NCBI RefSeq assembly: GCF_044324785.1 | Contig: NZ_CP172127.1 | Reading direction: 5' to 3' (one strand) | Length of the DNA: 64,000 nt | Source of the DNA: Escherichia coli | GTDB lineage: Bacteria > Pseudomonadota > Gammaproteobacteria > Enterobacterales > Enterobacteriaceae | Made by a program: the position numbers | Part shown: piece by piece, positions 45,801-64,000 of the stretch | How the letters are laid out: each line of letters begins with the position of its first letter | How positions within the stretch are numbered: the stretch's first letter is position 1

Positions 45801-48800
45801 CAAACCGGCGAATATCAAACGCGTCATAGTCAAAAACTGCGACGACATCTGGCTTTGCTCCATGATGTATTGCGCGCAGACCCCTGAACTTCCCCACAAC
45901 ACGGCGGCAATCAGAACGTTCAGCATCCCCTTTCTGGTGGAACCCATTTTTCCCTCTGCATACTGTTTTGTCGTTTATCTATGCAGGCATGATAGCAAAA
46001 ATGGCGAGGATGGCTCTGTTTGCGCCACGCCGATTTTTCTTAGCTCAGACTGGTGAGCTAAATATCTTTAATAAACAGCAGACAAATCATCGCAATACCC
46101 AGCATTCCTATCGCCAGCCAGAACAACGCGTGGTAGCTCCAGATTTCAACCATAATTCCGTCAACAGAGCCGGCGATAATCCAGCCGACACGTGAGGTAT
46201 TTGCATATAACGTTGTCGCAGAGCCTATTTTTTCAGGCATCAGATCCTGAAAATAAAGCATGCCGATACCACAGAGAATACCAAGGAAGATGGCATTTAG
46301 AATTTGCAATTCCAGCTCAACTGCCGGAGTTGTCGCCATGAGTACGCTGGTGTAAAAACACATTCCACTCACGATAGCAATGAGCATTAATAGTCGCTTA
46401 CCAATACGTTTCATGTAATAGCCTGCGATTAACATCATCGGAATTTCCAGACCGGCAGCGATACCAATCATTTCTCCAGCCAGTTTATCGGTTAGATGCA
46501 GTTCATCAATAATAAATAGCGGCATATTTATCATGTAGAGATTATTCGCCGCCCACATCATTGAACAGACCACAAAAAGTAGCCGCGTATCCCGCTTCCT
46601 ATGGGTGGAGGGTAAAATTTCTATGGGTTGGGTAACGACAGGAATATTTCTTTGTATTGATGGCAAAAACAACCAGACTATCAGTCCGCAAACAACAAAT
46701 GCGATGGCAGCGGTGAGATACATCACTTTAAAACTAAATCCCATTGCCAGTTCATAAGCGAGCGGTGGCCCGATAACCCAGGCAAGCGAGATCTGAGCAC
46801 GTAAAAATGTACTGAACATGACCGTCTCACGGCCTGTTCTGTCGGCGTGTTCACGGGCGAGGGCGAACATTTGCGGGTTTGCAGTGGAAGCAAAACTACT
46901 CAGAAGTACGCCCGTTGAGAGGAGAATGAAGTAGTTGCGATTCCACGCAAAAAGCGTGCAGGCCAGCACTCCAAATAAGCAACATAGCAGGATCAGTAAT
47001 TTACGGTCGCCTTGTTTATCGGAGTGTCTTGCCAGAAATTGACTGACCAGAATTCCCATAATAGCGCTACCGGTGAAGAAAAAACCTACCATTATAGGAC
47101 GAGCTTTCAGTTCATCTGCGAGGAATATACTTAGGGTAGGAGTCTGAAGAGCGCCCGCAATACCAGTCAGAAAGGCGACAAGTAAAAATGCCGCGGCAGT
47201 GAGATCAAGTATTTTTGATGGAGTGGTAGCCGTTTTTTGCATTCTTCTGAATCACCGGGCGACAAAATATAACTGAGTTACAAATAAGTACCAGTCGAAT
47301 GAGTATTGTATTAAGAATTTTTGAGTATCGCTGATACAACCAGAAATCAATGCTAGCGCAATATTATAGGGCCAGCAATTGAGATTATTAGCAAAAGCAT
47401 GTTAAGAATTAATTACCGAATTTATATATTAATTATATTAAGGCATTGAGCTATTTTTGATAGTAAAAATAAAACAAGTTGATTTGATATATTAAATGAA
47501 TAAATTAATCTTGATGGCAGTCTGATTATTGGTGAAGTTTATAGGTCAGTTTTTTCGCCAGCGGTTAAAGAAATAGAATCGTCGTATAAAAAAGGGTGTT
47601 CTGGGGCGAGTAAAACAACATCTTCACCTTAATGGCGATACAGTTGGCTGAGAGTCAGCAGGGGGGCAAACCACCTGCAAATAAACACGGCGCATGCTGG
47701 CGCGAATATCGCGGATGCGTTCGAGGACAGAAGAACCGACAGGCGGATTCTTCAGTCGCTCATCGTCCATCACAAAACCTTTGATCAGGTATTCCTGAAG
47801 CCGATTGAATATTGAGCAGTAGAAAATCTCTGGATTGACAGTATTACAAGGGGTTGGAGAATGTCAGAAGAGGCATTTTGGCGGAAGATCACAGGAGTCG
47901 AATATGAATGTTAATGTTTTGATTTTAAATGATTAATCTGTGTTGGATAAATGAGTAACCCCCATAAGAACCCCCAAATAACTTTGTGTAAGGGAATGAA
48001 GCTAAAATACACAATCGAATCAATTCTTAGAGCTTTATTATGAAGGTAACACTCCCGGATAGTGTTTCGCAATAATATCATTCAGCCTGTCAACCAGTTC
48101 TGGTTTCCTGAACCTGATGTGCGCGGAGCCTTTCTTAAAGTATCTGATGCTGAACATCTCATCTTCATAGCATTCTTTACCCTGAACAGACCGGATGTGA
48201 TCATCCAGACGAATAGTGATGTTTTCCCGGTTGTCGGGGATCGGTTTGCCGCTGAACAGATGTAGCATTCTTTCCAGGTCGACGAGTCGGTCAGTCTGTT
48301 GCCCGGTGATAAGATGAAACCCCCACCGGTCCCACCTCACCAGGTTGTTGACGATAATTTTACTGCCAAATTTGCAGGGGCAATTGGTTTTGTAATTCCA
48401 GCTCAGTCCCCTGAAGACGTTGATCACCCCTCGCTCAAACACCTCATCCTTATTCTGGTGTAGTTGTTCAAATGTGATCAGAATGTTCGCTTCACTGATT
48501 TCCGGAAAATTATCGTACTCCAGTGACCGGTACCATGTATCACGGGCCTGTGCATCCATTAAGGAAAGCATCCCTGAACGTTGCATCAGGTCACGCCAGA
48601 TTTCGCGATCGAGATTGCGTGTGATGGCTTTCATTGCGGTTTCCGGTTTCTCCATCAGCCAGCAGCCGCAGCGAAAATCCTGTTTCATGGCCCAGCCCGG
48701 GGCGGCTTTACCGCCAATACTTTCTGTCATTGCTGATATTTCAGCCAGTTGCCGGATAAGTGTGTCGATTTGCAGCAGTGTACTCTTTCGTACAGCCAGA

Positions 48801-51800
48801 ATGTGGCGGATACTGGTTGAGCAGATAACGTCCGTATGCCCGGTGACCACTTCCGGACGGGAGATTGTGATGTCTGACATTATCGGTTTCCCTTTTGGTT
48901 TATAAACGAAAACGCCAGCCCTGTTCAGGCTGGCGTCAGTGGAATGAAGTATGGTGAGTGAGGCTCACGCGCTCAGGTGAATGAGTTGCAGGTGACGCAG
49001 GGTGCGGACATCCTCCCTGGCCTGTTCGATACAGGGCAACAATGCTGCCGAATCCGTTTTATCCTCATCGTTGTCGAAAATAATTCCGGACCCGCAGTCG
49101 ATATTGTCCTGCAGCCACGCAATGAGGATATCCAGCGCTGTTTCAGTGGTTAATGGCATCACGCTCTGTATCACTGTATTGTCTTCCGGCAACTGATGAG
49201 AGCTGGCAGAAGTCGCCGGTGTTTCGGTAGCGTCACGTTCATCCACCACGCGGAGTGAATAACCGTTTTCAGCGACCTTGTTAATCAGTTCAGTGAGCTC
49301 AACACCATCAATGTCAACGACAATTCGCCCTATATTCAGTGCCTGTACGTTAACGCTGTCTGCTTCCAATGTCAGGGCCAGTTTCATCATTTCGCCTCCG
49401 GATACTTACCCAGGGTAATGTTATTTACCGTTCTGTAATTGTCGCGGGTCATCAGGCCGGTCGCCCTGCGAGCCCGGAGGATATCGATGCTGTTTATTAA
49501 CTGAGAGCGGGTACAGGCGCTGAATCCCGGCTGGTTGGTACGCACCAGCGCGTATTTTTCCACGAGAAAGTTCACCGCATCACACAGTGAAATGCCTGCC
49601 TCAATATGCAGCTCAATCACGCGTTCATCCGCGAACGGTGTGTCATTCAGCGTAAGGCTGTAATGCTGGTCCAGTAACCGGGTGAGCAGTGTCTGCCAGA
49701 TGGTGACGGGAGACGGGCAGCACGATGCCTCCCGTACATGCGTGTCGGGTAATGTTTTCATAATGAAGATTTTCCTGATATGCAGAGATAAAAAATGGGA
49801 CAGTGGCGTGGTGAAAACACCAGGCCGGAGCAGAAGATTATTCTGATGATTTACTTTTTCGTTTCGGGCGTCGGATAAACAGCCAGATAAACGTAACCAC
49901 AGGAGCCGAGGGTGTCGGCTTCACAGGTCAGCCCCTTCGCATACAGTGTCACGGTATGCTGATGGCGGGGATTCAGTTCACCGCTGGTGAGCATGAGCTC
50001 CAGTTGTTTCATCGGCAGCGGAAAGGCCTGGTCCGGATGGTACGCATCCGCATCTCTGAACCGGCCTCTGATACCGGCACGGTCGGCAAGGTAATGCAAC
50101 CGGTTACCCTCCTGCACCAGACGTGCCCCGAAACAGGGCGTCACGGTGCAGGGCAGTCCCCACCAGAGGCGGTCGTGATTGTCGTCGTGATGCGTTGTCC
50201 CGGGGAGTGTGTCTGACACGATAAAATCCTCACAGAAAATCGTTGAATGATAGTTTAACTTTGACAGGTCAGCCGGTGCGCAGACCGGCTTCGGTGAAGG
50301 TGTATTCGTTGATGAGAAGGGCCTCATCCACAGGGGCATCTGAGGTCAGCCTGTTGTGCTCGTTTTCCAGTTGACGGTACAGCCATAAGGCCAGGTCGCG
50401 CAGGGCTTCGCTGACAGCGGCTTCCGCATCTGTTGTCATAGTCTGACCAGTCGGACTGTTCCGGGTAACAGTGATATCCATGCTGTACGGATGGCAGTAG
50501 CGTCCCCGGCGGTGGATTTCAGCCTGCAGTTGCCAGAAGTTACGCTTCTGCACCGCCTGCAGGGCATCCGCGATACGATGGAGTTCATGCTCCTGTGGGG
50601 CATACTTCCGGATTATCCGGGCTGTCGCCGGCTGCCAGTGCCAGCGTCCTTCAAAACAGGCTCCGTCCCCCTGGCTGCAGCATCCGCTGAACCAGATGCA
50701 CGGCTCTTCCATAAACCTGCCGTTGCTGAGCCGGAAAACGCGCTGGCGGAGGTCAATTCCGAAAATGTCACAGACCGCCCTGAAGTCCTCATACACGTTT
50801 TCATACCAGTTGCTGTCAGCATGATGCTGACGGTACCCGTCGCGGGCTTTTCCCCGTACCGGGCAGGAAAGTTCATCCAGCGTATACACTGTGATGGTGA
50901 TAATGCTGCTCATCAGAATCCCCTTTCTGATTCAGTTCAGGGTGACGCTCATCAGCCGGACATACGGGCCAAAACTGTCCTTACGGCGTTCAGCAAACAC
51001 GGCCAGCACACCGGGAATATCCTGTACTTCACGACCGGTATACGTCTCAGCACTGCCGTGCCAGCGGTACTTACCGGTGCAGAACGGAAATAGACGGGAT
51101 GCAGGATGCTGTTGGTGAATACGCATGGCTTCACCACGGGTGATAATTTTCATAATGGGATACCTCTGAAGACAGAAGATAAAAGTGAAAACAGGTGTGA
51201 TGTGGTTGTGACGGGTTAAAGCAGACCATGTTCGGCAAAGGAGAAAACCTGGCTGCCACCGACTATCAGATGGTCCGGCACCCGGATATCCACCAGGCCC
51301 AGTGCCTGTACCAGACGTTCCGTGATAAGGCGGTCTGCCTTGCTGGGTGTGACTTCACCGGACGGGTGATTGTGCGCCAGCACCACGGCAGCGGCATTGT
51401 GGTACAGGGCGCGTTTAATCACTTCCCGGGGATGGACTTCCGTGCGGTTGATGGTGCCGGTGAAGAGGGTTTCACCGGCAATCAGCTGATTCTGGTTGTT
51501 CAGATACAGCACCCGGAATTCTTCACGCTCCAGTCCCGCCATGTTCAGAATCAGCCATTCCCGTGCCGCATGCGTGGAGGTGAAGGCCACGCCGGGTTCA
51601 TGAAGATGGCGGTCCAGGGCTTTCAGGGCCCGCTGAATGAGGCTGCGCTCTCTGGTTGTCATTTCTCCGGGCAGAAAGGAAATCTGTTGCATTGTTCCGG
51701 CCCCCTTTCAGTCAATGATGCGCATAATGGCGCTGCATTCCGGATGCTGCAGGGCGTAATCCCGCAGACGGTAATAATGAACCGTCATGGCATAACACTC

Positions 51801-63800: not shown

Positions 63801-64000
63801 ATCTGATGGGCGAGGGTATTGATCAGCTTCTTATTTCTGTTAAGTAACGCAAAATGCTGCTCATCAAAGCCGCCGGCGACGTGGCAGAGCTCCAGCTCTT
63901 TGCCGGGCGGCTGTCGGCTGCCCTGGGTTGAGCACTGTTCGCTGTTGTGTAGCTCCCAGAAGCCGTCGCCTTTCAGGCGCCAGAAGGGCATGTCCGGCCG

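Follow-up and report, generated by a model that had tools for sequence, protein, structure and literature searches.

Comparative analysis of a 64,000-nucleotide (nt) stretch of the Escherichia coli contig NZ_CP172127.1 (assembly GCF_044324785.1; the whole stretch is called the window below) indicated that the selC genomic island entering it at position 47903 is a mosaic of three parts. These would be a conserved module with two divergent gene sets (module A, 47903-61284), a copy of the insertion sequence (IS) IS2 that forms a joint (61285-62615), and the inverted end of an island of the leuX type (part C, 62616-63198). Judged from the sequence comparisons below, we give this reading a probability of about 0.75. 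From position 47903 onward, the window covers 16 kb at the selC-distal end of an island that measures ~41 kb in strain ES1, so a preliminary description of the window, which had spoken of a composite selC island of more than 16 kb, was correct and even understated its size. That description had also proposed two CP4-like elements in opposite orientation; a second back-end terminus is indeed present and inverted, but the second element amounts to a 583-bp fragment.

The IS2 joint and the leuX-type terminus

The IS2 copy, a full-length element bounded by terminal inverted repeats, runs from TGGATTTGCCCC to GGGGGCCAGTCTA and shares 97.3% identity with IS2 copies annotated in other strains. Neither an identical 5-bp target duplication nor a contiguous empty site, the marks of a simple insertion, was found, and a query in which the two flanks were fused was contiguous in 0 of 5,426 complete E. 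coli genomes. On the left, the flank 61127-61284 matches ECCNB12-2 without a difference up to the IS2 edge, beyond which ECCNB12-2 continues into a module of LacI, phosphotransferase system (PTS) and transketolase genes; on the right, the flank starts in the middle of a DUF957 gene belonging to a back end like that of uropathogenic E. coli (UPEC) 536. Both exact IS2 junctions occur together in 8 genomes and have a single configuration in all eight, so that the inversion isomers which the preliminary description had envisaged left no sign among the complete genomes. LH50-c and GF60 keep the junction between IS2 and yeeW' and have other DNA on the left, which in LH50-c is a TRAP-transporter module. 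Since one IS end is fixed while its left partners vary, an IS-mediated deletion or IS-IS recombination is suggested. Taken together, IS2 sits exactly on a non-native joint of unrelated DNA, which supports an IS2-mediated rearrangement. The earlier proposal that an inversion or an IS2-mediated rearrangement is implied can thus be kept for the joint, but module A itself appears uninverted and the event is not specific to selC. A65EC, whose selC island is of the ES1 type, likewise has another left partner at this breakpoint: at 29241-29525 of the retrieved stretch, a deletion extends from inside the antirestriction gene to the exact breakpoint at the right end of IS2, and IS2 is gone.

Part C has a clear relative. 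Over 584 bp, the segment 62615-63198 matches the distal (attR) terminus of the UPEC 536 leuX island at 99.5% identity; the order there is CbtA, DUF5983, DUF957, truncated DUF4942', helix-turn-helix fragment (HTH'), phosphorothioate (PT)-dependent restriction endonuclease, HNH and nanS. Its beginning also forms an inverted repeat with the end of module A (48750-49053 vs 62918-62615; 304 bp, 86% identity, E 1e-100). The search for additional attachment site (att) repeats, recommended in the preliminary description, was rewarded by a degenerate leuX att at 63181-63198; it occupies the position of the leuX att repeat in 536, and the homology between the window and 536 stops there. The plus-strand yeeW' and DUF4942' remnants previously noted at 62.6-63.2 kb are real by tblastn, except that DUF4942' ends at 62937 and the interval 63.18-63.20 kb is the leuX-type att. 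Beyond it lies the restriction endonuclease DNA, which is normally outside attR at leuX loci and here carries an allele 74% identical to that of 536.

Because the remnant ends in a leuX att at the position homologous to 536, the second element was an island of the leuX type and never a selC integrant; its last 583 bp and DNA normally outside attR are the survivors. A leuX origin excludes tandem integration at selC, and for a stronger reason than orientation, on which the preliminary description had based the same conclusion; its statement that simple tandem integration at one att cannot explain the island is thus borne out. In addition, the truncated DUF4942'/HTH' junction is a widespread terminus variant and not the product of decay within this island.

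The joint is not confined to selC. A block consisting of ProQ', IS2, yeeW', DUF4942', HTH', restriction endonuclease, HNH, GH43 and xylA, with identical protein accessions, was found in the selC islands of ES1, an ST38 strain and EC0585, in the compact leuX islands of YZMc17-1 and H8, and in the pheV island of I2, where a pheV att remnant lies next to yghD. Between ES1 (selC) and YZMc17-1 (leuX), IS2 and 12.1 kb rightward of it are 99.93% identical, and the adjoining backbone is 86-97% identical; the right-hand block was found in only ~11 genomes. As the identical junction is present in selC, leuX and pheV islands, the rearrangement is not local to this selC island. The leuX islands of H8 and YZMc17-1 have an interior att' that points the opposite way from leuX itself, and they finish with a normally oriented full terminus of this type (90% identical).

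Several features of the carriers are recorded here in their own right. In the 32-kb leuX islands of H8 and YZMc17-1, the PT-dependent restriction endonuclease gene is present three times, whole or in part (as a 150-nt N-terminal piece at the terminus, a complete copy in the interior and a 666-nt N-terminal piece near the integrase); they also carry an integrase fragment, which points to further rearrangements. In LH50-c, fragments of adeD and yicS, core genes of the selC neighborhood, lie inside the right-hand block between xylA and a LacI/PTS/GH1 module (23210-23588 of the retrieved stretch), and there are hints that the sugar-utilization cargo of LH50-c was captured from another chromosome.

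Module A and its setting at selC

A composite query, in which DUF932 and the GTPase gene were joined to the spacer and the Gp2 gene in window orientation with the cargo removed, was covered to at least 80% in one place in 1,618 of the 5,426 genomes, at 85-91% identity and many chromosomal positions. The divergent order and orientation are alike in nine of nine annotated loci, situated at selC (ECCNB12-2, RM8082, NDM6), leuX (536, YZMc17-1, H8) and pheV (I2), together with ES1 and an IS2-flanked copy in Ch1. In the leuX island of UPEC 536, for example, Gp2 diverges from the GTPase gene over ~1.5 kb of AT-rich DNA homologous to 56553-57248 of the window. No plus-strand back end was found to the right of the Gp2-AlpA set in the retrieved stretches of ECCNB12-2, RM8082 and NDM6; after ProQ, ECCNB12-2 has the LacI/PTS/transketolase module and NDM6 a dnd/dpt cluster, and RM8082 has a second Gp2 set, then other genes, and no annotated ProQ. 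In these same three islands, which have no second inverted arm, module A lies beside the distal att in the same orientation. Furthermore, Gp2 is nearest the GTPase gene and AlpA is further out, whereas an inverted alpA-yfjI-yfjJ order would put alpA nearest.

Because the divergent layout recurs in the 1,618 genomes and the nine loci, because it occurs in islands free of the second back end, and because of the gene order, 47903-61284 appears to be one conserved, unrearranged module. The divergent arrangement of Gp2 and GTPase genes would then be the native architecture of this subfamily, with no inversion: a back-end operon from the GTPase gene to DUF4942 and an operon of Gp2, hypothetical, AlpA and hypothetical genes read outward from the AT-rich spacer, with a variable cargo slot beside the GTPase gene and ProQ/FinO at the far end. 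The plus-strand YfjJ-like and AlpA genes that the preliminary description placed from 57.7 kb onward are genuine by Pfam, but the same counts and gene order argue against its view of them as the front end of a second element.

The Gp2 gene gave weak PHROG matches to replication initiators, and a match to REP_ORF2-G2P at E 3e-10. At the amino acid (aa) level, it is 90-95% identical to the first Gp2 paralogue (Gp2#1) of 536, RM8082 and NDM6 (95% for 536). Residues H101 and H103 (HxH) together with Y213 and K216 (YxxK) are invariant in seven homologues with identity down to 21%, and with both an HUH motif and a catalytic tyrosine motif the product is a putative rolling-circle initiator or relaxase. 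A second, very different Gp2 paralogue set is found further in in NDM6, RM8082 and I2; relative to NDM6 and RM8082, the window is without the interval between Gp2#1 and the hypothetical-AlpA genes, and the joint lies at ~58541/58561. That the Gp2 gene is a hybrid of two paralogues was considered and rejected, as it is a full-length Gp2#1 and the window is without the interval that extends a little beyond Gp2#2. In CP4-57, AlpA regulates excision. PADLOC, NCBIfam and PHROGs returned nothing for the 200-aa hypothetical protein or for the open reading frame (ORF) 59632-60426. The ProQ/FinO gene is intact in ECCNB12-2 and NDM6. A literature search found no account of this island architecture or of YfjJ/YagK function.

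On the minus strand, ten back-end genes (48038-54173) have Pfam matches at E-values of 2e-14 to 4e-68 in the order first described, from the GTPase gene to DUF4942 and then the att remnant, so that the preliminary description can be followed here in full. The matches of GTPase, DUF932, antirestriction, RadC, DUF987 and CbeA/CbtA all exceed the gathering score, in the expected order. In ES1, the YeeW-like ORF is annotated as two halves, DUF5983' and DUF957. CbtA and CbeA, adjacent and on one strand, are a predicted type IV toxin-antitoxin pair. Judged by their families, CbtA/CbeA would stabilize the island, and the genes for ArdB/KlcA-type antirestriction, RadC and DUF932 would have their role during establishment. 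As a side observation, a ~300-bp patch in the antirestriction/DUF932 interval (51990-52300) is 99.4% identical to the NDM6-type allele and 84% to ES1, its flanks being 100% identical to ES1; paralogous back ends have exchanged sequence here by gene conversion.

Between the GTPase gene and the spacer, other islands have different genes in the cargo slot. The two low-GC ORFs in the window had no family match in Pfam, PADLOC, NCBIfam or PHROGs. As the slot genes vary among islands, and as CP4-57 has abpAB/rnlAB at the equivalent place, 54276-56101 is probably a hotspot of defense cargo. Within the adjoining spacer, the ~900 bp directly upstream of Gp2 (56800-57711) showed a conservation of 0.8-0.98 per 50-nt bin among six islands at selC and leuX, as high as that of the genes, and the remaining half 0.3-0.58. 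The conserved part is AT-rich and T-rich on the plus strand, and iteron-like TAAGT(G/A)TTTT repeats occur at 56682-56820. An Rfam scan of 47000-64000 at gathering thresholds, spacer included, gave zero matches.

The outer boundary of the island is sharp. Collinearity with K-12 (45000-47902) extends from yicL, setC and the yicT pseudogene through the last 24 nt of selC and ends at 47902/47903. The 24-mer TTCGACTCCTGTGATCTTCCGCCA has a single occurrence in the window, at 47879-47902 on the minus strand (0.00 expected by chance); as in CP4-like elements, insertion is thus at the 3' end of a tRNA gene, with a direct repeat of the tRNA end. Because K-12 homology ends there and this copy of the selC 3' end is unique, 47903 is the exact outer edge of the selC island, and the minus strand of the window leads away from selC. 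ARAGORN gave no tRNA for the window, selC itself being outside it; in ES1, tRNA-Sec and its integrase lie ~41 kb further on, with the integrase 300 bp from tRNA-Sec.

The interval 44000-64000 is 99.3% identical over its full length to ES1 and the ST38 strain, with nlpA-yicL-setC to the left. The differences from ES1 are unevenly spread: the chromosomal flank at 44.0-48.0 kb has 78 of them (~2% divergence), whereas the island has the one 300-bp patch and 4 differing positions elsewhere. A near-identical island beside a diverged flank, with the break falling at att, suggests that the island, or its att-side end, moved between chromosomal backgrounds. The att copy, perfect in the window, has a 1-nt deletion in ES1. 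Outside the island, the fragment 47672-47799, labeled 'RhuM family' in relatives, is the K-12 yicT pseudogene and belongs to the core DNA; it had been considered, together with the 640 bp between setC and att, as a relic of an older island, and this was rejected since it is present in K-12. Further to the left, at ~29000-43900 upstream of yicS, the ES1 annotation places the eip/eilA cluster, with the iatC/air inverse autotransporter, eilA, and IpaD/SipB-like translocon and chaperone genes.

Table 1. Coordinates of the features of the island end in the window
Feature	Position	Strand	Details
Distal att	47879-47902	-	perfect copy of the 24-nt selC 3' end; K-12 collinearity and ES1 divergence both stop here
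DUF4942 gene, last of module A	48038-48880	-	Pfam E 3.6e-68
YeeW-like ORF	48965-49390	-	in-frame fusion of DUF5983 N-terminus and DUF957; DUF5983_N E 2e-28
CbtA toxin	49387-49761	-	Pfam E 3e-61
CbeA/YeeU antitoxin ORF	49851-50339	-	Pfam E 9e-52
Extra 214-aa gene	50269-50913	-	phrog_5162; kept in ES1, Ch1, ECCNB12-2, I2
DUF987/YeeT	50932-51153	-	Pfam
RadC-JAB	51216-51692	-	Pfam
Antirestriction gene	51708-52193	-	Pfam (Antirestrict)
DUF932	52285-53103	-	Pfam
YfjP/YeeP-type GTPase	53289-54173	-	Pfam
Variable cargo slot, two low-GC ORFs	54276-56101		317 aa, plus strand, 54276-55229; 291 aa, minus strand, 55226-56101
AT-rich non-coding spacer between divergent gene sets	56102-57711	.	72% identity to 536, same relative arrangement
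Inovirus-Gp2 / YagK-YfjJ family gene (HUH-type, replication-initiator-like)	57712-58443	+	YagK_YfjJ_C E 3e-36
Hypothetical-AlpA-hypothetical stretch as a whole	58770-60426	+	
Hypothetical gene	58800-59372	+	
AlpA-family HTH	59441-59677	+	Pfam E 2e-10
Hypothetical gene	59878-60426	+	NCBI label YagK/YfjJ-domain
ProQ/FinO-family gene	60444-60952	-	frameshifted (so annotated in ES1); Pfam E 5e-17
Last native module A DNA	61127-61284	.	100% identical to ECCNB12-2
IS2, joint-forming	61285-62615	-	1331 bp; both ends intact; flanking pentamers TTCAG and TTCGG
attR-end fragment of leuX-type CP4-like island	62616-63198	+	583 bp
DUF957/yeeW' C-terminus	62617-62703	+	tblastn 25 aa, 96% identity, at 62617-62691
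DUF4942' N-terminal 49 codons	62788-62937	+	tblastn aa 1-49, 76% identity
HTH' fragment	62913-63041	+	
Degenerate leuX att	63181-63198		16/18 match to leuX positions 62-79 (3' end); 0.03 expected by chance
Phosphorothioated-DNA-binding (PT-dependent) restriction endonuclease gene	63341-64000	-	runs off the window end

Origin of the mosaic and competing explanations

We propose the following history for the three-part mosaic. IS2 would first have entered the DUF957 gene of a leuX-type element. An IS2-mediated deletion, IS2-IS2 recombination or adjacent transposition may then have fused the DUF957 end to the site upstream of ProQ, and the joint would have severed module A from its native continuation beyond ProQ, which is the LacI/PTS/transketolase module in relatives. 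The orientation of IS2 would have fixed the inverted orientation of the leuX fragment, and the finished block may have spread among selC, leuX and pheV islands by homologous recombination across their shared backbone.

Other histories account for part of the same evidence. Two whole CP4-like elements could stand head to head, Gp2 and AlpA being the front of the second element, yeeW' and DUF4942' its back, and IS2 the trace of a deleted middle. All four are indeed plus-strand genes and succeed one another from front to back as in CP4-57, and IS2 lies between the Gp2-AlpA set and the remnant without an intact target duplication. This is nevertheless unlikely: in 1,618 genomes the Gp2-AlpA set goes together with the minus-strand back end, also in islands without a plus-strand back end; where IS2 is missing, ProQ is succeeded on its right by LacI/PTS/transketolase (ECCNB12-2) or dnd/dpt (NDM6) genes and by no back end; the order Gp2-hypothetical-AlpA differs from alpA-yfjI-yfjJ; and the two flanks of IS2 have different closest relatives at different levels of identity. 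A recent inversion within this selC island, mediated by the 304-bp repeats or by two IS2 copies and possibly still switching, would fit the bracketing of 49054-62614 by the inverted DUF957/DUF4942 repeat, one arm of which IS2 abuts. We regard it as very improbable, as 8 independent complete genomes, with the island at three different loci, agree in one fixed configuration, module A has the same orientation beside the distal att in islands without the second arm, there is one IS2 only, and repeats of 86% identity are a poor substrate for recombination.

The opposite view, of one conserved and unrearranged element across 47903-64000, had been named in the preliminary description as what would overturn it. 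It is true of 47903-61284, which is indeed conserved, and the whole 20 kb recurs at 99.3% identity in ES1 and the ST38 strain. To the right of 61284, however, it is refuted by IS2 flanks that are unrelated and contiguous in no genome, by a leuX-type att inside the island, and by a right-hand block confined to only ~11 genomes; for the full interval its chances are slighter still than those of a recent inversion. Finally, IS2 is multi-copy in E. coli, with matches in 5,208 genomes, and could have led to a chimeric join during assembly, but the same two junctions in 8 independently assembled complete genomes make such an artefact hardly conceivable.

Some observations weigh against the three-part mosaic as we have drawn it. 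The pentamers flanking IS2 agree at 4 of 5 positions (p ~0.016), which is odd for unrelated flanks. No second IS2 copy or remnant was found in ES1 (99 kb), H8 or YZMc17-1, each island having one IS2, and 54.2-64 kb contains none of the complementary DUF957/DUF4942 halves that should remain after a simple inversion. ES1 has a complete DUF3833 gene where that of H8 is truncated, and H8 has 154 bp that are missing from ES1 and the window; neither the ES1-type nor the H8-type block therefore appears to be the direct parent of the other. With regard to module A, the coverage criterion of 80% behind the count of 1,618 tests strand and proximity, not gene order, which was checked in the nine annotated loci only, and the survey comprises complete genomes of E. 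coli only. The divergent layout could itself descend from an ancient head-to-head fusion, because in K-12 CP4-57 and CP4-6 yfjJ/yagK are co-directional with the GTPase gene and back end. In addition, the island past position 64000 is known from ES1 only, and the window strain is assumed to be alike there.

Module A in the light of known systems

That insertion sequences and inter-island recombination produce patchwork islands at tRNA sites is textbook knowledge for E. coli, and the present region is an ordinary mosaic tRNA island, another of an already published kind with an arrangement already in public genomes. Its value lies elsewhere. Since one IS2 joint stands unchanged at selC, leuX and pheV, it can serve as a clean marker for the exchange of blocks among islands. 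For annotation, plus-strand YfjJ/AlpA genes in this subfamily are no sign of inversion, and the K-12 layout is not universal. The conserved spacer beside an HUH-type gene is, moreover, a candidate for the origin from which these very common islands would be transferred or replicated.

The combination of a Gp2 gene with HUH motifs, a conserved ~900-bp non-coding spacer and antirestriction-type genes reading away from it resembles a mobilization unit. By analogy, module A might be self-contained in this respect, with a candidate origin in the spacer nicked by Gp2 or a helper relaxase and the back end as the leading region that enters the recipient first. We consider this doubtful; if true, it would explain why module A is a conserved, exchangeable backbone at selC, leuX and pheV. 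A 2026 preprint argued that many E. coli islands are mobilized via origins of transfer (oriTs), and described oriT-only 'iOriT' islands at tRNA sites, with anti-restriction and defense genes beside a non-coding transfer origin (bioRxiv 10.64898/2026.01.13.699239). The concept fits module A, where no oriT was identified and the 900-bp spacer is no more than a candidate, although the preprint names no CP4, selC or leuX (bioRxiv 10.64898/2026.01.13.699239).

Among well-described elements, CP4-57, CP4-6 and CP4-44 of K-12 share with the island the same family order in the back end, the AlpA and YfjJ/YagK families, integration at tRNA or tmRNA genes, and a cargo slot upstream of the GTPase gene. 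In K-12, however, yfjJ/yagK are co-directional with the back end in the order alpA-yfjI-yfjJ, whereas here the divergent order is Gp2-hypothetical-AlpA-hypothetical. The AlpA and YfjJ/YagK families are present here, but on the strand opposite to the back end, a difference that is subfamily-wide and not local. The proteins are also distant, with Gp2 ~30% identical to YfjJ/YagK and AlpA ~25% to AlpA, and no YfjI homologue is present here. IS2 conforms to its IS3 family type here too, with 1331 bp, terminal inverted repeats and two frameshift-coupled ORFs, apart from a 5-bp duplication that is not intact.

Mosaic selC islands with CP4-type integrases have been published, such as GIselC17584/1, which contains yeeP-yeeV/Z1226-type genes and pieces in common with the islands of UPEC 536 and CFT073 (PMC6174562); its cargo differs from that of the present island, and no joint of IS2 and a leuX att is mentioned (PMC6174562). 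Another close likeness is to the distal end of the UPEC 536 leuX island (PAI II-536 region), which has the same divergent Gp2, spacer and GTPase arrangement and the same succession of DUF957, DUF4942', HTH' and leuX att, followed by the PT-dependent restriction enzyme and HNH. In 536, this terminus has the canonical orientation and completes an entire back end at leuX, whereas here it is an inverted, IS2-cut stub of 583 bp within a selC island.

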